The notes under the pieces: model-generated
What the model was told of the DNA's origin: nothing
Databases searched by the model: none
What the model saw: the letters and a program-made list of their open reading frames with translations, nothing else
Translations under genes and position numbers: made by a program
Shown: one piece after another, positions 5,384 to 60,463 of the stretch
Position numbering within the stretch: the stretch's first letter is position 1
Layout: each line of letters begins with the position of its first letter
Assembly (NCBI GenBank): GCA_013001685.1
Contig: JABDMD010000001.1
Coordinates: forward strand, 10,101 to 74,100
Reading direction: 5' to 3'
Length of the DNA: 64,000 nt
Origin: Gammaproteobacteria bacterium
GTDB taxonomy: Bacteria > Pseudomonadota > Gammaproteobacteria > UBA4575

Positions 5384-5902
5384 ATGACATCAATAGTAAT
5401 TTTCTTTATCGTTACCATTGCACTGGTCTGGGGTGTACTGATTTATAACAAACTCGTACATGATAGAAATACCTCGCTTGCGGCTTGGAGTGATATCGAC
5501 GTTCAACTTAAACGCAGACATGATTTGATTCCCAAGCTCATCGATGCTGTTAAACAGTACGCAAGTTATGAAAGCAGCCTACTAGAATCAGTAACTTCAT
5601 TACGCTCTCAAGCTAAAGCTATTAAAAAAATATCAGAACGAGAAAATGTAGAACGCGAATTACAAACTCAAGTACATAAACTCATCGCAGTAGCCGAAGA
5701 TTATCCTGAGCTCAAAGCAAACCAAAATTTTCTTGAACTACAGAAAGATATTTCAAATGTAGAAAATGATATTCAATACGCACGACGTTATTACAACGGC
5801 GCAGTACGAAACATAAATACACGCATCGATTCATTCCCTGATTTAGTTATTGCTCGATTTTTAAACTACAAATATCACGAATACTTTCAATTAGATGATT
5901 AA
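5384..5902 (+). CDS. lemA: LemA family protein
   Basis: N-terminal TM helix, then the conserved LemA region (YNKLV...W..ID.QLKRR.DLIP.L...VK.YA.HE...L..VT..R). Confidence 0.75.
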   Translation: MTSIVIFFIVTIALVWGVLIYNKLVHDRNTSLAAWSDIDVQLKRRHDLIPKLIDAVKQYASYESSLLESVTSLRSQAKAIKKISERENVERELQTQVHKLIAVAEDYPELKANQNFLELQKDISNVENDIQYARRYYNGAVRNINTRIDSFPDLVIARFLNYKYHEYFQLDD

Positions 5903-7835
5903 ATCACTCTCAAAATATACCTATATATGCTTAGTCTTAGTAATTAGCCACCACTGCTTAGCTGAGCATGCATTCTCTGCTGAAGAAATCTTATCTTTTG
6001 ATAGTCATATTCATATACATGAAGACTCATCAATGTCTGTAACTGAAAATATTACAGTTCGTGCAGAAAACAATAAAATAAACCGTGGCATATATCGGGA
6101 CTTCCCTACTAAATATGAAGGCAAACTTGGCAACAAGATCAAAGTGGGATTTGAAATTGTTGAAGTACTAAGAAATGGCAATTCTGAGCCTTTTCACACG
6201 AAAAAAATGAGCAATGGAATACGTATCTATGTAGGAGACAAAAATAGATATGTGAATCTGGGCGAGCATACTTACACCATTAAATATAAAACAAACCAAC
6301 AACTTGGTTACTTTGATCGCCATGATGAGCTTTACTGGAATGTAACCGGGAATGGTTGGGACTTTCCAATCCTTAATGCTAAAGCCAGTGTAATGCTGCC
6401 GGATTCAATTAAATCAAACGAGGTAAAATTGGAAGCCTATACAGGAGTTATGGGAAGCAAAGGCCAAAGTTATTACACAGATATTAGCTATTCTGGAAAT
6501 TATTTATTTTCAGCTAATCGTACTCTTGCAAGCAACGAAGGCTTAACCATCGTAGTTACTTGGCCTAAAGGGCATGTAAGCCAACCAAGTTTCATGCAAA
6601 AAGCCACTTGGTGGTGGCAAGCTAACGTTGATAATCCAATAAACTTACTTGGTTTCTTTGGTTTATTCTTTTTTTACTTAAGTGCATGGTGGAAACTAGG
6701 CAAAGACCCTGAGCCCGGTGTCATCATACCTCATTACCAACCACCTAAAGGTTTTCCTCCCGGTGGACTGCGCTACATAAATGAAATGGGACACGATAAA
6801 AAATCTTTTACCGCAGCTCTACTTAATCTTGCTGTAAAAGGATATCTGAAGATTGAAGAAGTTGGTAAGACTTATAAATTACAAAAATTAAAAAATACTG
6901 ATCTAAGATTACCACCTGGAGAAAAAGCTATTCACTCTAGCTTATTTGGAAATGCTGGACATTACATTGAGTTAAAAAATAGTAACCATGCAAAAATCTC
7001 TGCTGCTATATCTAAGCACAAAAGTGCTATAAAAAATGAATACAGTCAAAGTTACTTTATCTATAACCGAAAAATTCTTTATATTGGCATTCTTATCTCA
7101 GTCATTATTGCCGCATTTATTCTCTTTGGTTTAAAAAACGGTGAAGACAAAGGAGCCGCACTATTCCTCATGTTTTGGCTATCTATCTGGACACCAATAA
7201 CTGCTTTCTTAGTGCTAGGCTGGCTGAGCCTTTTTAAAACACGATTCACTATTGGAAAAGTTGTTGAACTGCCCGTAGCTACCATATTTGCCGGAGCTTG
7301 GACTACTGCTGAGCTAGGTGCCATAGTAGGATTGTGCTCAATAATAGGAGTTGCGAACGGCTTGGTATTAATTTCTTTATTCATCATTAATACCATTTTT
7401 TATTATTTACTTAAAAAACCAACACTGGAAGGAAGAAAACTATTAGATAAAACTGAAGGTTTCAAAAAGTACCTAGAAGTTGCTGAGCAAGAAGATTTAA
7501 ATCTTAAATACCCGCCTCAAAAAACACCTGAACTATTTGAAACTTATCTCCCGTATGCACTCGCACTAGGAGTAGAAAATCAATGGGCCGAGCAATTCAC
7601 CAATTTATTTAATTCACGAGGTGAACATAACGAATATCAACCTTCATGGTATAGTGGCAGTAATTGGAATAACAATAATTTAAACTCTTTCACAAATTCT
7701 GTAGGCAACTCACTTAACTCTGCTATCTCATCATCCTCTAAAGCACCTGGCTCATCTTCTGGCAGTAGCGGTTTTGGTGGCGGAGGTGGTTCCTCTGGCG
7801 GTGGCGGTGGCGGTGGCGGCGGTGGCGGCTGGTAG
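5895..7835 (+). CDS. DUF2207-like membrane protein with a Gly-rich C-terminal tail
   Basis: 646 aa: signal peptide, large extracytoplasmic domain, several TM helices, then a Ser/Gly-rich tail ending GGGGGGGGGGGW. Overlaps the lemA stop, the usual LemA partner arrangement. Confidence 0.6.
   Translation: MIKSLSKYTYICLVLVISHHCLAEHAFSAEEILSFDSHIHIHEDSSMSVTENITVRAENNKINRGIYRDFPTKYEGKLGNKIKVGFEIVEVLRNGNSEPFHTKKMSNGIRIYVGDKNRYVNLGEHTYTIKYKTNQQLGYFDRHDELYWNVTGNGWDFPILNAKASVMLPDSIKSNEVKLEAYTGVMGSKGQSYYTDISYSGNYLFSANRTLASNEGLTIVVTWPKGHVSQPSFMQKATWWWQANVDNPINLLGFFGLFFFYLSAWWKLGKDPEPGVIIPHYQPPKGFPPGGLRYINEMGHDKKSFTAALLNLAVKGYLKIEEVGKTYKLQKLKNTDLRLPPGEKAIHSSLFGNAGHYIELKNSNHAKISAAISKHKSAIKNEYSQSYFIYNRKILYIGILISVIIAAFILFGLKNGEDKGAALFLMFWLSIWTPITAFLVLGWLSLFKTRFTIGKVVELPVATIFAGAWTTAELGAIVGLCSIIGVANGLVLISLFIINTIFYYLLKKPTLEGRKLLDKTEGFKKYLEVAEQEDLNLKYPPQKTPELFETYLPYALALGVENQWAEQFTNLFNSRGEHNEYQPSWYSGSNWNNNNLNSFTNSVGNSLNSAISSSSKAPGSSSGSSGFGGGGGSSGGGGGGGGGGGW
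7774..7829 (+). repeat. GGY (Gly codon) microsatellite encoding a poly-Gly tail
   Basis: ggtggcgga ggtggt...ggtggcggtggcggtggcggcggtggcggc. Confidence 0.6.
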
Positions 7836-7873
7836 CCAAAATAACTAATCAAGCAATCTACCGAATAATAAGC

Positions 7874-8851
7874 ATGAACCCAGACCCTCGCCTCACTCAA
7901 CTGCACGAGTGGATAAAAGAAACCCTAGGCAATATTAAATATTCACTGACTGCAGTTTCTGGTGACGCCAGTTTTCGACGCTATTTTCGACTAGCAAGCA
8001 AAGACTATCTGTATATCGCAGTAGATTCCCCTCCTAAAAAAGAAAAAAATGAGGAATTTGTAAATGTAACTCATTTACTTGAAGCAGAAGGCCTACCTGT
8101 TCCTCATATCCACTATAGTTCTCTAGATTTTGGTTTTTTTCTACTTAGTGATTTAGGTGATGAGCTATTGTTAAACATACTGAATGAAAATAATGTCGAT
8201 GAGTTATACATCAAAGCACTTAATGCTCTTAGTATTATTCAACAAACACCAGCGACAAGTTTACCTTTGTATGATGAGCAACTGTTACTACAAGAAATGG
8301 AACTGTTTAGAGAATGGTTTTTAACTAAATACCTTTCTCAACAACTTACTAACAATGAAAATCAAATTTTAAGCGATACATTTAAAAACCTTGCAAATAA
8401 TGCATTACAACAGCCACAAGTATTTGTACATCGAGATTTTCACTCTCGCAATCTCATGCACATAAAAGGCAAATATCCTGGAATAATTGACCATCAAGAT
8501 GCAGTACTTGGCCCTATCACCTATGACCTGGTTTCTTTATTACGTGATTGTTATATTAAATGGCCTAACGAAAAAGTAATCGAATTTGCACTAAGCTTTT
8601 ATAAAAAAATTATAGACTGTGGAACAATTGAAAATATTGAAGAAAAAACATTTATAAAATGGTTTGACTTGATGGGCATACAACGGCACCTTAAAGCTAT
8701 AGGCATTTTTTCGCGCTTAAATATCCGCGATAACAAGCCTAACTATTTACAAGATATACCGCGAACCTTAAGTTATATAAAATCGGTTACGAAAAATTAT
8801 CCAGAAACGAATAAGTTGTCTGAAATCATAAATAATAAAGTAAATATTTAA
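7874..8851 (+). CDS. amgK: anomeric MurNAc/GlcNAc kinase (aminoglycoside-phosphotransferase fold)
   Basis: ASGDASFRRYFR signature and HRDFHSRNLM catalytic loop; immediately followed by a MurU-like nucleotidyltransferase, as in Pseudomonas. Confidence 0.65.
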   Translation: MNPDPRLTQLHEWIKETLGNIKYSLTAVSGDASFRRYFRLASKDYLYIAVDSPPKKEKNEEFVNVTHLLEAEGLPVPHIHYSSLDFGFFLLSDLGDELLLNILNENNVDELYIKALNALSIIQQTPATSLPLYDEQLLLQEMELFREWFLTKYLSQQLTNNENQILSDTFKNLANNALQQPQVFVHRDFHSRNLMHIKGKYPGIIDHQDAVLGPITYDLVSLLRDCYIKWPNEKVIEFALSFYKKIIDCGTIENIEEKTFIKWFDLMGIQRHLKAIGIFSRLNIRDNKPNYLQDIPRTLSYIKSVTKNYPETNKLSEIINNKVNI

Positions 8852-54814: not shown

Positions 54815-56329
54815 TTAGCCAAGGAAAAGTTTATACACTGGATTGCTGGTTTCTTCCCAATATCGATAACCTAATTTTTCTAAAAACTCATCAAAACGAG
54901 AGCGCTGGGAATCAGGCACCTGTATGCCAACCAACACACGCCCATATGCAGCACCATGGTTACGATAGTGAAATAAACTTATATTCCAGTCAGTACCTAT
55001 CGTTTCTAAAAATTTTAATAACGCACCAGGGCGTTCTGGGAATTCAAATCTAAATAGGATCTCATCTTGTATCTGAGTACAGTGTCCACCCACCATATGA
55101 CGCAAATGCAAAATCGCCATTTCATTATCCGAAATATCCAGTGCCGCATAACCATCGGTATTCATAGCTTTTAGTAGCTGCTCTTTTTCCTTATCAGCAT
55201 CCTCGACTTTCACACCAACAAAAATATGTGCAGCTTGGTTATCCGCATAACGATAGTTAAACTCGGTAATTCCGCGTGCACCCAGGATTCGACAGAACTT
55301 CAAAAAACTACCTGGCTGCTCTGGAATAGTTACGGCAAATAAACATTCACGACGTTCACCTAGCTCAGCACGCTCGGCAACATGACGTAAACGATCGAAG
55401 TTGATGTTCGCACCACAATTGATCCCGACTAAAGTCTGCCTGGTAACTTTTTCTCTGGAAATATATTGTTTAATACCGGCTAAAGATAAAGCACCTGCAG
55501 GTTCTACCAATGTACGTGTTTCATCAAAGATATCTTTGATCCCAGCACAGATATCATCGGTGGTTACTAGCAGCACTTCATCGATAAGATCTTTGGCAAT
55601 TGCATAGGTTTTTTCACCTATTTGCCGTACTGCAACCCCGTCAGCAAATATGCCTACTTGCTCTAATTCGACTCTTTTCTGAGCTTTTAACGCAGCATGC
55701 ATGGTGGGTGCATCTTGCGGCTCTACCCCGATTATCTTTATTTCTGGTCGATAATGCTTGATGTAGGCTGCCATTCCGGCTACTAAACCACCACCGCCAA
55801 TTGCGATAAATATGGCATCAATTTTCCCTGGATGCTGCTTTAGTATTTCCATCGCGATCGTACCCTGCCCAGCAATCACATCTTCATCATCATAAGGATG
55901 CACATAGATAAGATTTTGTTGCTCAGCTAGTTGCAAAGAGTGCTGATGTGCTTCGTCATAGGTATCACCAAACAAAATGGCTTTGCCGCCTAAGCGAGTT
56001 ACCGATTCAACTTTGATATTGGGTGTTGTCGTCGGCATCACAATAGTTGCAGGAATTCCAAGTTTATTTGCAGCTAATGCCACACCTTGCGCATGATTAC
56101 CGGCAGATGCAGCAATTACGCCTTGTTTACGTTCTGCTGCAGAGAGATGTGCGATTTTGTTGTAAGCCCCCCTGAGCTTGAAAGAAAAGACACTTTGCAA
56201 GTCTTCTCGTTTCAGATAAATATTATTAGCAAGTCGCGCCGAGATAACTTTTGCATGGTCAAGTGGCGTTACAATCGCCACATCATAGACCTTGGAATTT
56301 TCTATTTTTTTAATTAGTTGCTGATTCAC
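54815..56329 (-). CDS. ilvA: biosynthetic threonine dehydratase
   Basis: 504 aa. PLP fold-II domain (SFKLRGA) plus two C-terminal ACT-like regulatory domains. Confidence 0.85.
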   Translation of the reverse strand: MNQQLIKKIENSKVYDVAIVTPLDHAKVISARLANNIYLKREDLQSVFSFKLRGAYNKIAHLSAAERKQGVIAASAGNHAQGVALAANKLGIPATIVMPTTTPNIKVESVTRLGGKAILFGDTYDEAHQHSLQLAEQQNLIYVHPYDDEDVIAGQGTIAMEILKQHPGKIDAIFIAIGGGGLVAGMAAYIKHYRPEIKIIGVEPQDAPTMHAALKAQKRVELEQVGIFADGVAVRQIGEKTYAIAKDLIDEVLLVTTDDICAGIKDIFDETRTLVEPAGALSLAGIKQYISREKVTRQTLVGINCGANINFDRLRHVAERAELGERRECLFAVTIPEQPGSFLKFCRILGARGITEFNYRYADNQAAHIFVGVKVEDADKEKEQLLKAMNTDGYAALDISDNEMAILHLRHMVGGHCTQIQDEILFRFEFPERPGALLKFLETIGTDWNISLFHYRNHGAAYGRVLVGIQVPDSQRSRFDEFLEKLGYRYWEETSNPVYKLFLG

Positions 56330-56469
56330 TTTTATTGGCTCGTATTTTTCTATTCTTTGGCCTATTTTTAGCCGTTGGCATCCTAATATGAAATTCTAAT
56401 TAGCTAAATTAACAATGCTTTTAACAGCTTCTGTGGGTATTATTCAGTAAAACTTAGCCCATACATACA

Positions 56470-57123
56470 ATGTCTTTAGAAAAAAAGAAACAAATTGCTG
56501 CTGAAGCCGCGCTAGATTATATACAACTCAATGATGTAGTCGGTGTTGGCACCGGATCTACCGCAAATTACTTTATAGATGGCCTTGCAAAACTTAAAGG
56601 CAAAATAGAAGGCGCTGTAGCAAGCTCTGTAGCGTCTTCTGAGCGATTAAAACAACATGGTATACCCGTACTTGATTCAAACAGCGTTGCAATGCTTCCG
56701 ATCTATGTAGACGGCGCAGACGAGACTACAACGCATAAACATTTAATCAAAGGTGGCGGTGGTGCACATACACGTGAAAAAATTGTTGCTGCGATCAGTG
56801 AAAAGTTCGTTTGTATTGCCGATGATTCAAAATTAGTCGATATATTGGGTGAATTTCCATTACCAATCGAAGTAATCCCTATGGCACGAAGCTATGTCGC
56901 CAGACAATTAGTAAAAATAGGAGGAGTACCCGAGCTACGCGAAGACTTTATCACCGATAATGGCAATGTCATTTTAGACGTGCACAACCTGGAAATTCTA
57001 AATCCGGTAAAAATGGAACAACAGCTAAACAATTTAGCCGGTGTGGTTACTGTAGGAATTTTTGCAATACGGCCAGCAGATGTGCTTATTCTTGGAACCG
57101 ATAATGGAATCGTCACTTCTTAA
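56470..57123 (+). CDS. rpiA: ribose-5-phosphate isomerase A
   Basis: RpiA motifs (GVGTGST, DGADE, KGGGGA). ilvA-rpiA adjacency as in Pseudomonas. Confidence 0.85.
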
Positions 57124-57227
57124 ACCTAAATTATTTAATTTGGAACGTCTCAGGTAAATATCTTAGGGAAACCACTTTGGAAAAAAAGACTCTAAGTTTC
57201 CAATAGCAAATTTTTTTGGAGGACTTC

Positions 57228-57653
57228 ATGAAAACAACAATAACTTTATTTTCACTTTTAGCATGCTTTTCCTTGTTTATACCCGTACAGGCTAAATCAC
57301 CTGCTGCACCTGATAGTTACGTTTACATCATCAGCCCACAAGATGGCGAAATAGTACACAGTCCGGTGTTAGTTAAATTTGGCTTACGTGGTATGGGTAT
57401 TGCTCCTGCAGGTGTAGAAAGCGAAAACACTGGACATCATCATTTATTAATAGATGTTGAAAAACTACCTGATCTCGACAAACCGATTCCGGCTGACGAT
57501 CATCATGTACATTTTGGCAAAGGCCAAACTGAAGCATTGATTGAACTAAGCCCTGGTGCTCACACCTTGCAATTGCTCTTAGGTGATTTTTCACACATTC
57601 CACATGACACAGCAATTACTTCCGAGAAAATAACAATCAAAGTAGTGGAGTAA
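57228..57653 (+). CDS. DUF4399-like secreted His-rich protein
   Basis: SD ggagga, signal peptide, His clusters (GHHHLLID, DDHHVHFG). Confidence 0.55.
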   Translation: MKTTITLFSLLACFSLFIPVQAKSPAAPDSYVYIISPQDGEIVHSPVLVKFGLRGMGIAPAGVESENTGHHHLLIDVEKLPDLDKPIPADDHHVHFGKGQTEALIELSPGAHTLQLLLGDFSHIPHDTAITSEKITIKVVE

Positions 57654-57812
57654 CACATCTTTAAATCATTTCGTCAACGCCTGCAAGCAGGTGAAATTTT
57701 ACTAAGCACCCTGGTTTCATTTCCAAGCCCAGAAATCGTTGAACTACTTTCCAAGTTAAATTTTGATTGGCTGTTTATCGACGGTGAGCATGGCCCTTTT
57801 GGTACGTTTGAA

Positions 57813-58409
57813 ATGCAAAGGATGTTGCAAGTAGCGGGTAATAATTGTCCATGTCTGATCCGCGTGCCTAGTAATGATCTGGTTTACATCAAACAAGCTT
57901 TAGATATTGGTGCAGCGGGAATTATCGTTCCGCAAATTAATAACGCCGATGAAACACAAGCCGCAGTACGGGCGGCGAAATATCCCACACTAGGCAATCG
58001 TGGTGTAGGTCTGGCACGCGCGCATGAATATGGAATTTCTTTCACTGACTATTTAGCAAATGCGGATAGTGAAACCTGTGTAGTAATCCAAGCGGAAACT
58101 CAAGGTGCGATCGAACACATCGATGAAATTGTAGCGATCAAAGATGTCGATGCGATATTAATTGGTCCTTATGACTTGTCAGCAAATCTTGGCTACACCG
58201 GACAGATTGATCATCCAGAAGTGGTTGCTGCAATAAGCAAAGTTGAACATGCATGTAAACAAGCAAATGTGAAATTAGGCTACTTTGGTGTTAACGCGGA
58301 AACTGTGCTTCCCTATAAAGAAAAAGGCTTCACACTGCTTACTATTGGCGTAGACAGCTTGTTTGTTTTAAACAGCGCGCAACAACTTTTAGATGAAATG
58401 AGCGCTTAA
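57813..58409 (+). CDS. HpcH/HpaI-family aldolase (track ORF); conserved N-terminus extends in-frame to 57654 without a canonical start
   Basis: Family motifs FDWLFIDGEHGP... lie upstream of the first ATG. No ATG/GTG/TTG occurs in-frame between the upstream TAA (57651-57653) and 57813. Confidence 0.6.
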   Translation: MQRMLQVAGNNCPCLIRVPSNDLVYIKQALDIGAAGIIVPQINNADETQAAVRAAKYPTLGNRGVGLARAHEYGISFTDYLANADSETCVVIQAETQGAIEHIDEIVAIKDVDAILIGPYDLSANLGYTGQIDHPEVVAAISKVEHACKQANVKLGYFGVNAETVLPYKEKGFTLLTIGVDSLFVLNSAQQLLDEMSA

Positions 58410-58422
58410 AAACAATCTGATC

Positions 58423-58800
58423 ATGTCTCGCAAACTACAAATGAGCATTAACAAACATAAGATATTGGTAACCCTACGCAACACCGCCACAGCAGACGCA
58501 ATTTATGCTGCTTTACCGTTTGAGTCACATGCACAAACGTGGGGTGATGAAGTGTATTTTTCAACACCAGTTTCAAATCAAATCTTAGAGGGCGATGCCA
58601 AAGCTGTTGTTGAACTAGGTGAGCTCGCATTTTGGGTTGAAGGTGATTGCATCGCTATAGGATTTGGACCAACTCCAATTTCTCAAGGTGATGAAATTCG
58701 ACTTGCGGCTCGCACTAATATTTGGGCAGATACTGATTATGAGTTAACGGCACTGAAAAATGTTCGGTCAGGTGAGTTAGTTAGCGTAGTGGCTGCTTAA
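58423..58800 (+). CDS. cyclophilin-like-fold small protein
   Basis: About 120 aa with a beta-barrel pattern (I.V.L.DN.TA.A.....P....W). Confidence 0.45.
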   Translation: MSRKLQMSINKHKILVTLRNTATADAIYAALPFESHAQTWGDEVYFSTPVSNQILEGDAKAVVELGELAFWVEGDCIAIGFGPTPISQGDEIRLAARTNIWADTDYELTALKNVRSGELVSVVAA

Positions 58801-58804
58801 AATT

Positions 58805-59161
58805 TTACGATGTAGCAATAAATTTGCTACTTAGAATGCGAAACACAATTAGAGCGACCATTATCCCCAGTAAATCCGCTGCAAAATCATACATACTGAA
58901 AACTCGTCTAGGCACATAAAGCTGCAAGACTTCAATTGCTAGACCAAATAAAGCCATCACCAACGCGGTAGTAAAAAACGGCTTGCTAAATTTATACGCA
59001 AATAACAGCAAAATTGATAATACGCAAAATGTACCGAAATGAGCAAGCTTGTCTAAATGTTGTATTGAATTGCTCACAGAACCTGGTATCGATGACAGAA
59101 CCAAAACCGCTATAACTAAAACCCAAAATATCAGCTTTATATATTTTTGTTTTATCAGCAT
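58805..59161 (-). CDS. VanZ-like family membrane protein
   Basis: 118 aa, 4 TM, with the DK(L/F)AH motif in the first loop. Confidence 0.55.
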   Translation of the reverse strand: MLIKQKYIKLIFWVLVIAVLVLSSIPGSVSNSIQHLDKLAHFGTFCVLSILLLFAYKFSKPFFTTALVMALFGLAIEVLQLYVPRRVFSMYDFAADLLGIMVALIVFRILSSKFIATS

Positions 59162-59281
59162 AGCTATTATTATTTTACTTTAACCAGGTATTTTTTTAGA
59201 CCGAACATGTATGAGATGGTTTCAATAATCAAGGCAAGCCCTAGTTCGCTCCACGAACTGCCATACTAAGCTCCTTAAACC

Positions 59282-60463
59282 ATGAAAACCAAACATAAAT
59301 TCTTATCTGTAATTGGTACTGTCTTCATAGCTGTTACGGCAATCGTTTTTACCTGGCTACCAACTTATATAGAAAAATCGAGGAATCGAGTATTGCCAAG
59401 TCAGAATGTAGAGATTTCCACCACAACAAAAAAACTACATCAATCATTATTTATTGCCGATTTACATAGCGATTCACTATTATGGAATCGTGATTTAGCC
59501 AAAAAATCAGACTACGGACATGTAGATATCCCGCGATTGATCGAAGGCAACGTTGGATTACAAGTTTTTTCAGTTGTCACTAAGACCCCGAAGAATCTTA
59601 ATTTAATTACCAACTCAGATGATACGGATAACATCACCTTGCTCACCATGGCTCAGTTATGGCCCGTTAAGACTTGGTTTAATTTGTTTGAGAGAGCAAT
59701 TTACCAAGCAAAAAAATTACACCGCGTGACCAATGATTCCTCTCATAACTTTTTCTTAGTCAGAAACCAACAAGATTTCAAAATCTATTTACAAAAGCGT
59801 AAAAATAATCCACAAATCACTGCAGGCTTACTTAGTCTTGAAGGCGCACACGCTCTGGAAGGAAAAATTGAAAATGTAGATCGCTTATATGAAGCAGGCT
59901 TCAGAATTATCGGCTTTACACACTTTTTTGATAATGCTCTTGGAGGCTCAGCACATGGAATTAATAAAGGCGGCATCACGGAGTTTGGCAAACAAGTACT
60001 AAAGCGTATGCATGAATTAGAAATGTTCGCCGACATATCTCACGCCTCACCTGCCTTAACAGAAGATATATTTATTCACAGCAAGCGCCCTGTATTAGCT
60101 ACGCATATTGGTGTGCAAGCAGTGTGTGAATCAAAATCTAAAAGAAACTTAACCGATAAACAGATTAAGCAAATTGCCGATTCTGGTGGATTAATTGGGA
60201 TCGGTTTTTGGCCTACTGTAACTTGCAATAGAAGTATTACAGGCATTGTTGAATCAATTCGCTATGTTAATGATTTAGTAGGTGTCGATTATGTTGGGCT
60301 AGGATCCGATTTCGATGGCAATGTTCAAGTACCCTTCACTTCTTCAAGCATTGAACAATTAACGCATGCGCTTACTCAAGCAGACTTTAGCAAGCAACAA
60401 ATCAGAAAAATTATGGGTGGTAATCTGCAAAGAATTTTTACAGAGTACCTGCCTAGTAATTAA
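59282..60463 (+). CDS. membrane dipeptidase (peptidase family M19)
   Basis: N-terminal TM anchor and M19 signatures (ADLHSD, GLGSDFDG). Confidence 0.75.
   Translation: MKTKHKFLSVIGTVFIAVTAIVFTWLPTYIEKSRNRVLPSQNVEISTTTKKLHQSLFIADLHSDSLLWNRDLAKKSDYGHVDIPRLIEGNVGLQVFSVVTKTPKNLNLITNSDDTDNITLLTMAQLWPVKTWFNLFERAIYQAKKLHRVTNDSSHNFFLVRNQQDFKIYLQKRKNNPQITAGLLSLEGAHALEGKIENVDRLYEAGFRIIGFTHFFDNALGGSAHGINKGGITEFGKQVLKRMHELEMFADISHASPALTEDIFIHSKRPVLATHIGVQAVCESKSKRNLTDKQIKQIADSGGLIGIGFWPTVTCNRSITGIVESIRYVNDLVGVDYVGLGSDFDGNVQVPFTSSSIEQLTHALTQADFSKQQIRKIMGGNLQRIFTEYLPSN

Follow-up and report, generated by a model that had tools for sequence, protein, structure and literature searches.

Genes that lack a canonical start codon are known in Escherichia coli, where infC, which follows thrS across the junction UAA GGU AUU, and pcnB both begin at AUU. 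The AUU codon of infC is an autoregulatory device that is discriminated by IF3. A further gene without a canonical start was identified in a stretch of 64,000 nucleotides (nt) from an uncultured, marine-type gammaproteobacterium (assembly GCA_013001685.1, contig JABDMD010000001.1, positions 10,101 to 74,100), referred to here as the window. This gene encodes an aldolase of the HpcH/HpaI family and is located directly downstream of a gene encoding a DUF4399 protein, from which it is separated in a shared reading frame by a single TAA. The ancestral TTG start of the aldolase gene has been lost, the gene has been kept intact, and the full-length enzyme is probably produced from the codon AUC at position 57657.

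The aldolase junction has the same UAA-NNN-AUH geometry as the thrS-infC junction (UAA CAC AUC and UAA GGU AUU, respectively). Expression of infC results from a mixture of de novo initiation and reinitiation (PMC3592434), and about half of the expression from a UAA-GGU-AUU junction of this type is attributed to reinitiation (PMC3592434). The aldolase differs from infC in that its putative start is AUC instead of AUU, is derived, is confined to one species and appears to have replaced a lost UUG. The AUU of infC is autoregulatory, whereas no regulatory role is indicated for the AUC of the aldolase.

Termination-reinitiation pairs have been described by Huber et al. (2019, 2023). Like the DUF4399 and aldolase genes, these pairs are co-directional, have closely spaced stop and start codons and carry a Shine-Dalgarno (SD) motif within the final codons of the upstream gene. 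In the typical coupled pair the two genes share 4 or 1 nt, and the products are often subunits of a single complex (PMC10666635), whereas at this locus a secreted-looking DUF4399 protein precedes a cytoplasmic enzyme. With 6-7 nt between them, these two genes make an odd pairing for coupled genes.

Switches between start codons have been surveyed by Belinky, Rogozin and Koonin (2017). The aldolase resembles the surveyed cases in its weak UUG, its well-conserved SD motif and the substitution of the start on a recent branch. Among 2,468 ancestral UUG starts, none changed to AUH and one changed to CUG, almost all switches being among AUG, GUG and UUG (PMC5622118). Changes from a canonical to a near-cognate start amounted to about 6 of about 69,000 reconstructed starts (PMC5622118). 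Unlike the surveyed switches, the start triplet of the aldolase was destroyed and the adjacent triplet apparently took over.

An earlier note on this DNA, made from the letters alone, had placed the DUF4399 open reading frame (ORF) and the aldolase in the same frame, with the TAA at 57651-57653 and a GGAG at 57647-57650, 6 nt before the ATC. All of these coordinates were confirmed when the ORFs were read again. Downstream of the TAA, the aldolase frame reads CAC ATC TTT AAA TCA TTT CGT, and no in-frame ATG, GTG or TTG is present between the DUF4399 stop and the ATG at 57813, as expected of a gene with a near-cognate start. The leader without a start codon comprises 53 codons. Of the window ORFs that span 150 codons or more from stop to stop, no other has such a leader longer than 35 codons, and most have fewer than 15. 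The missing start is a peculiarity of a single gene and no habit of the organism; organism-wide relaxed start-codon usage was rejected because no other window ORF of this size has a comparable leader. A frameshift route from an upstream start was also rejected, since frames +1 and +2 near the junction reach stops within a few codons. The second-longest start-less leader among the large ORFs, with 35 codons before the first ATG, belongs to the ORF at 7769-8851 (+ strand), which overlaps the end of the ORF at 5895-7835.

The start-less segment matches the aldolase family in sequence and in predicted structure. When it is included, the match to PF03328 grows from profile positions 59-219 to 10-219 (of 221), and the score increases from 108.5 to 125.7 bits (gathering cut-off 25). 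From its residue 3 onwards, E. coli HpaI (PDB 4b5s, E = 5e-46) can be aligned with the aldolase, which brings the ATC opposite Met1 of HpaI. These two results bear out the proposal of the earlier note that 57654-57812 encodes the conserved N-terminus of the aldolase without ATG, GTG or TTG. In a family alignment of 35 sequences, 72 columns are invariant, and 13 of these fall in the segment, including D42, E44 and H45. The residues H45, R69, E147 and D173 are invariant in the 35 homologues and correspond to His45, Arg70, Glu149 and Asp175 of HpaI, respectively, so that the catalytic and metal-ligand positions are all occupied as in HpaI. His45 and Arg70 are catalytically important in that enzyme, and the catalytic and metal-ligand roles (Glu149, Asp175) have been described (PMC8560999).

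An AlphaFold2 model of the 250-residue protein (predicted local distance difference test, pLDDT, 90.5; predicted template modelling score, pTM, 0.88) contains eight strand/helix repeats, which correspond to a predicted (beta/alpha)8 barrel. A helix (residues 5-10), beta-1 (15-20), alpha-1 (25-32) and beta-2 (39-42) all precede the first Met (residue 53), which lies inside helix alpha-2. A start at this Met had been expected to delete the first strand and helix of the barrel; in the model the loss would extend to beta-1, alpha-1, beta-2 and His45. The start-less segment is thus predicted to be structurally indispensable, and a product of 198 amino acids (aa) beginning at the Met should be unable to close the barrel.

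That shorter protein is the product expected from annotation of the Prodigal type, as ATG 57813 is the first canonical start in the frame, and seven database sequences have been called in this way. These sequences, which stem from gene calls of NCBI, ENA and Logan, form the cluster P0045, begin at the internal Met and lack the catalytic His45. It is very unlikely that the 198-aa protein is the real product. Its start lies within helix alpha-2 and is not preceded by an SD motif, and the protein would be without two of the eight barrel strands, alpha-1 and His45. In all 12 assemblies of the species, the 51 codons upstream of the Met are open and in a conserved frame. Of the 2,933 homologues retrieved in a protein search, 120 were listed, and apart from P0045 all of these (119) begin elsewhere than at that Met. 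The entries on this list are 247-267 aa in length and include the N-terminal segment, except for P0045, which represents the Met-start calls of the species itself, and three shorter entries (P0044, 239 aa; P0071, 232 aa; P0072, 199 aa), which also retain the N-terminus. Orthologues that begin at the equivalent of Met 57813 and lack the upstream segment, named in the earlier note as the observation that would speak against it, were therefore not encountered among the listed homologues.

E. coli HpaI/HpcH (4-hydroxy-2-oxoheptanedioate aldolase; 4b5s, 2v5j), GarL and RhmA/YfaU belong to the same PF03328 family as the aldolase. The scores obtained with the equivalog models fall short of the cut-offs for HpaI (TIGR02311, 189 versus 368.8), GarL (171-174 versus 393-407) and RhmA (145 versus 441). 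The genetic context of the aldolase (rpiA, DUF4399, cyclophilin-like) is also unlike that of a homoprotocatechuate or sugar-acid operon. By sequence, the aldolase is a member of the HpcH/HpaI family and no equivalog of HpaI, GarL or RhmA.

The origin of the start-less junction is indicated by 13 orthologous DNA sequences with 77-92% aa identity, taken from metagenome-assembled genomes labelled Thiotrichales or Gammaproteobacteria and from Logan, JGI and ENA contigs (L001-L010, L034-L036). The earlier note had suggested a search of orthologous junctions for an ATG near 57657. Instead, the start of the orthologues is located at the position of the window TTT (57660-57662), where TTG is found in 12 of the 13 and ATG in one. 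From this distribution it follows that the window lineage lost an ancestral weak TTG start when the G at 57662 was changed to T. The loss of a start codon, which had been one of three options in the earlier note, was thus confirmed, one codon downstream of the ATC considered there. The codon preceding the TTG in the orthologues is TCA, GCA, TAC, TTT, ACA or ACG and in no case a near-cognate start, which indicates that the ATC is also derived in the window lineage. An ATC start is absent from all 13 orthologues, and the unusual codon is therefore not conserved beyond the species.

Ten of the orthologues have the DUF4399 gene upstream. In all ten, a GGAG, TGAG or GAGGA motif is present in the last DUF4399 codons, and the DUF4399 stop is separated from the TTG by 6 nt in five orthologues and by 7 nt in the other five. 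The 7-nt junctions, which include those of the two closest relatives (L034 and L035), are out of frame. In two further orthologues (L009 and L010) the TTG is retained although no DUF4399 ORF is present upstream of the aldolase. Retention of the weak TTG in 12 of 13 orthologues, even in these two, suggests long-term selection for low translation of the aldolase.

The same comparison bears on readthrough of the UAA, by which a DUF4399-aldolase fusion would be produced. Within this species both ORFs share a frame that is interrupted by a single TAA, as such a fusion would need. The shared frame is not maintained in the clade, since half of the ten orthologous junctions are out of frame, including those of the closest relatives. 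The orthologues have a TTG start of their own, and L009 and L010 have the aldolase without any DUF4399 gene before it. The DUF4399 protein looks secreted, with a signal-peptide-like N-terminus (MKTTITLFSLLACFSLFIPVQA/K) judged by eye from the sequence, whereas the aldolase family is cytoplasmic. UAA is, in addition, the most efficient stop codon in bacteria. A readthrough fusion, another of the options raised in the earlier note, is accordingly regarded as highly improbable; the out-of-frame junctions and the apparent secretion signal both tell against it.

Eleven further assemblies of the same species (L026-L033, L038, L040 and L041) were obtained by exact-sequence look-ups and one metagenome scan. 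The sources were NCBI (GCA_018676985.1, GCA_024638735.1, GCA_947258455.1 and CAJHXG01), Logan (SRR23287145 and SRR12825417-19) and ENA (ERZ28013244, ERZ27296363 and ERZ23498799). Eight of them were compared directly with the window and showed 98.7-99.9% identity over the DUF4399 and aldolase genes. All 12 assemblies, namely the window and the 11 independent others, carry the sequence ATC TTT. The codon before the ATC is CAC in the window and in L028-L033 and CGC in L026, L027, L038, L040 and L041, and further sites differ as well. As 11 independent assemblies that differ elsewhere agree on ATC TTT, the allele is real and fixed in the species, and sequencing error is excluded. An error of sequencing or assembly concealing a true TTG or ATG, which had also been considered in the earlier note, has a negligible probability, because separate NCBI, ENA and Logan samples all contain the identical junction; nothing was seen that would speak for such an error.

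One database entry appeared at first sight to be a repaired allele. P0121, a protein of 250 aa with a canonical Met, is encoded on the 960-nt contig L039 (ENA ERZ1687912, k141_4002472). It was rejected as a repaired allele because the contig is probably chimeric. Positions 1-154 of L039 (1-960) are GC-rich and foreign, and from position 155 the contig corresponds to window 57762-58567 with 99.3% identity. The first ~44 residues of P0121, together with the upstream SD motif and ATG, come from an unrelated GC-rich aldolase gene, and the join is located at the conserved DW.FIDGEH motif. L039 is most likely a chimeric metagenome assembly; the alternative is a real recombinant in which a canonical start has been restored.

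Selection on the start-less gene was assessed with 11 full-length alleles, all carrying TTT and differing pairwise by up to 2.0%. Over the whole aldolase gene, 14 synonymous and 11 non-synonymous changes were counted, giving a ratio of non-synonymous to synonymous polymorphism (pN/pS) of 0.23 (P = 3.5e-4 versus neutrality). For the part downstream of the Met, the counts were 11 and 7, respectively (pN/pS 0.19, P = 5.6e-4). Among the changes that became fixed on the branch towards the species, 25 are synonymous and 4 non-synonymous. Because all of the variation among the alleles arose on the TTT background and is biased towards synonymous changes, the gene stayed under purifying selection after the start was lost. 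Selection on the downstream part, combined with the structural need for the N-terminal segment, further implies that the upstream segment is translated. These data show that the start codon was lost, that the loss became fixed and that constraint on the gene continued. The loss is not very recent, as alleles up to 2% apart share an ancestor that already carried it, which qualifies the word "recent" in the earlier note.

A young pseudogene or silent gene, from which no useful full-length protein is made without the TTG and in which the ORF has not yet decayed, is an unlikely explanation. The canonical start is indeed gone, and in E. coli reporters AUC is just ~1-2% as efficient as AUG (0.02-3% across constructs; 10.1101/063800). 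Non-synonymous changes are also slightly denser in the N-terminal part (4 of 118 sites versus 7 of 456), a difference that is not significant. Against this explanation, the synonymous bias described above was established on the TTT background in both the whole gene and its downstream part. No stops or indels were found among the 11 alleles at up to 2% divergence. The catalytic and invariant residues are all intact, and of the replacements in the N-terminal part all four (I/V, V/I, F/L and F/I) are conservative and lie in variable columns, outside the invariant ones.

The following model is proposed for expression of the aldolase. After the clade-wide ancestral start had been lost through the change of TTG to TTT at 57660-57662 and this change had been fixed in the species, translation of the full-length enzyme would still begin with fMet-tRNA, now at the near-cognate AUC at 57657, one codon upstream. 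The conserved GGAG located 6 nt upstream would serve this AUC. It may also be used in termination-reinitiation, by ribosomes that finish the DUF4399 protein at the UAA 3 nt upstream. The output of an aldolase started in this way would probably be low. Both the choice of AUC and the respective shares of de novo initiation and reinitiation are proposed from sequence. AUC initiation, termination-reinitiation or both had been listed first among the options of the earlier note, and this option is now the best supported of the three.

Several features of the junction are consistent with the proposed AUC start. Seven in-frame near-cognate codons are present in the leader, and among them only ATC 57657 has an SD motif at a workable distance; the GGAG ends 6 nt before it, within the 5-9 nt considered for AUH starts that match the N-terminus of homologues. 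An intergenic distance of -8 to +10 nt has been treated as predictive of termination-reinitiation (PMC10666635), and the distance in this co-directional pair is +3 nt to the ATC and, in the ten orthologues, +6 or +7 nt to the TTG. Initiation at AUC in E. coli yields an N-terminal Met, as determined by mass spectrometry (10.1101/063800). In another E. coli reporter, UUG and AUU were about equally weak, both being 6-8-fold below AUG (PMC3592434). Since UUG and AUH codons are similarly weak and the SD motif is better placed for the new codon, replacement of UUG by AUH need not be catastrophic for a low-output gene.

Initiation at another non-canonical codon of the leader, either the former start itself (UUU 57660) or AUU 57696, would yield a slightly altered N-terminus and is considered improbable. 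Hecht et al. observed low-level initiation from many codons that are not near-cognate, at 0.01-1% of AUG (10.1101/063800). UUU 57660 has kept the ancestral 9-nt distance to the GGAG, and it has two mismatches to the initiator anticodon, codons of this type being 10-100 times weaker than AUH (10.1101/063800). AUU 57696 is preceded by an SD-like AGGTGA, the core of which ends 2 nt before the codon, closer than is workable; initiation at this AUU would remove the N-terminal helix and leave the protein beginning right next to beta-1. The other near-cognate codons, CTG at 57681, 57711 and 57771 and ATC at 57735 and 57777, have no SD motif.

Five observations weigh against initiation at AUC 57657 of a constrained, full-length gene. 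Firstly, AUC is a poor start in E. coli, and by analogy expression of the aldolase could be very low. Secondly, in the 51 codons upstream of the Met, 3 changes are synonymous and 4 are non-synonymous (pN/pS 0.40, P = 0.2), a test that is underpowered with seven events; no difference between the segment and the remaining part of the gene was seen (Fisher P = 0.66), and the result is compatible with constraint and too weak to prove it alone. Thirdly, no RNA structure of the kind expected for unfolding-type coupling was detected at the junction, the fold of which is no better than that of shuffled sequences (z = -0.11). Fourthly, no intermediate allele with both ATC and TTG, by which the two changes could be ordered, was found. 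A metagenome scan in which the third base of the start codon was left free likewise returned no repaired or intermediate allele and just one further TTT copy. Finally, a near-cognate codon is expected at one of the two spacer codons by chance with a frequency of ~0.09-0.17, as estimated from base composition.

A start-codon handover may be suggested tentatively. The tight juxtaposition of stop and start, through termination-reinitiation and together with the strong, well-placed SD motif, would relax the stringency of start selection so far that a conserved enzyme gene could do without any canonical start for the lifetime of a species. The new adjacent AUC would then be compensatory or permissive and no coincidence. 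This idea is at present doubtful.

The features of the junction are collected in the table below. An internal promoter or terminator between the DUF4399 and aldolase genes was not found; matches were no commoner than in shuffled sequences, and the spacer is 6 nt. A small hairpin at 57678-57693 (CGCCTGCAAGCAGGTG; 6 pairs, loop of 4) begins 22 nt after the proposed AUC start. It scored as terminator-like, yet it lies inside the coding sequence, where such matches are no commoner than in shuffled sequences and the fold of the region is ordinary.

Features of the DUF4399-aldolase junction (positions in the window)
Feature	Position	Strand	Remarks
DUF4399 gene	57228..57653	+	ATG at 57228; 141 aa; Pfam PF14347, E = 6e-38; ends with TAA
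GGAG, Shine-Dalgarno-like	57647..57650	+	Within the final two DUF4399 codons (GTG GAG); followed by ATC after 6 nt and by the former TTG after 9 nt
TAA stop of DUF4399 gene	57651..57653	+	Shares the aldolase frame; followed by ATC after 3 nt
Spacer codon CAC	57654..57656	+	CAC/CGC polymorphic within the species; probably untranslated
ATC, proposed near-cognate start	57657..57659	+	Opposite Met1 of E. coli HpaI (4b5s alignment)
TTT, remnant of ancestral TTG start	57660..57662	+	G-to-T at 57662, from orthologue comparison
N-terminal coding segment without ATG, GTG or TTG	57663..57812	+	N-terminal helix, beta-1, alpha-1, beta-2 and DGEH loop
CAT (His45), counterpart of catalytic His45 of E. coli HpaI	57789..57791	+	4b5s and 2v5j alignments; upstream of the first Met
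ATG, first canonical in-frame start	57813..57815	+	Internal Met in helix alpha-2; gives the 198-aa product with Prodigal-type callers
HpcH/HpaI-family class II aldolase coding sequence, proposed	57657..58409	+	250 codons and TAA; PF03328, E = 2e-36
Cyclophilin-like gene	58423..58800	+	13 nt after the aldolase stop; PF04126, E = 3e-32; part of the same conserved gene string

The gene string ilvA (- strand), rpiA, DUF4399, aldolase, cyclophilin-like (PF04126), VanZ-like (- strand) and M19 dipeptidase is conserved across the clade, having been seen in the window (54815-60463) and in L029, L030, L034-L037 and L040. An identical DUF4399 protein has been called in five other assemblies. The 13 nt between the aldolase stop and the ATG of the cyclophilin-like gene (AAACAATCTGATC, within 58407-58425) contain no obvious SD motif.

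The NCBI entries MBT8125165.1 and NNC66475.1 (250 aa, MFKSF...) already begin at ATC 57657. A near-cognate AUC start is a rare but known kind of bacterial start, annotated in this form in GenBank. The locus also illustrates an annotation hazard, as databases store one gene both as a correct-looking 250-aa form (cluster P0001) and as the truncated 198-aa form (cluster P0045). The case opens no new mechanism or biology. It provides a natural example, clean and validated at the population level, in which the signature of selection indicates that a bacterial gene still works after the loss of its only canonical start, and the UAA-NNN-AUH geometry makes this junction suited to measuring the rescue of a near-cognate start by reinitiation.

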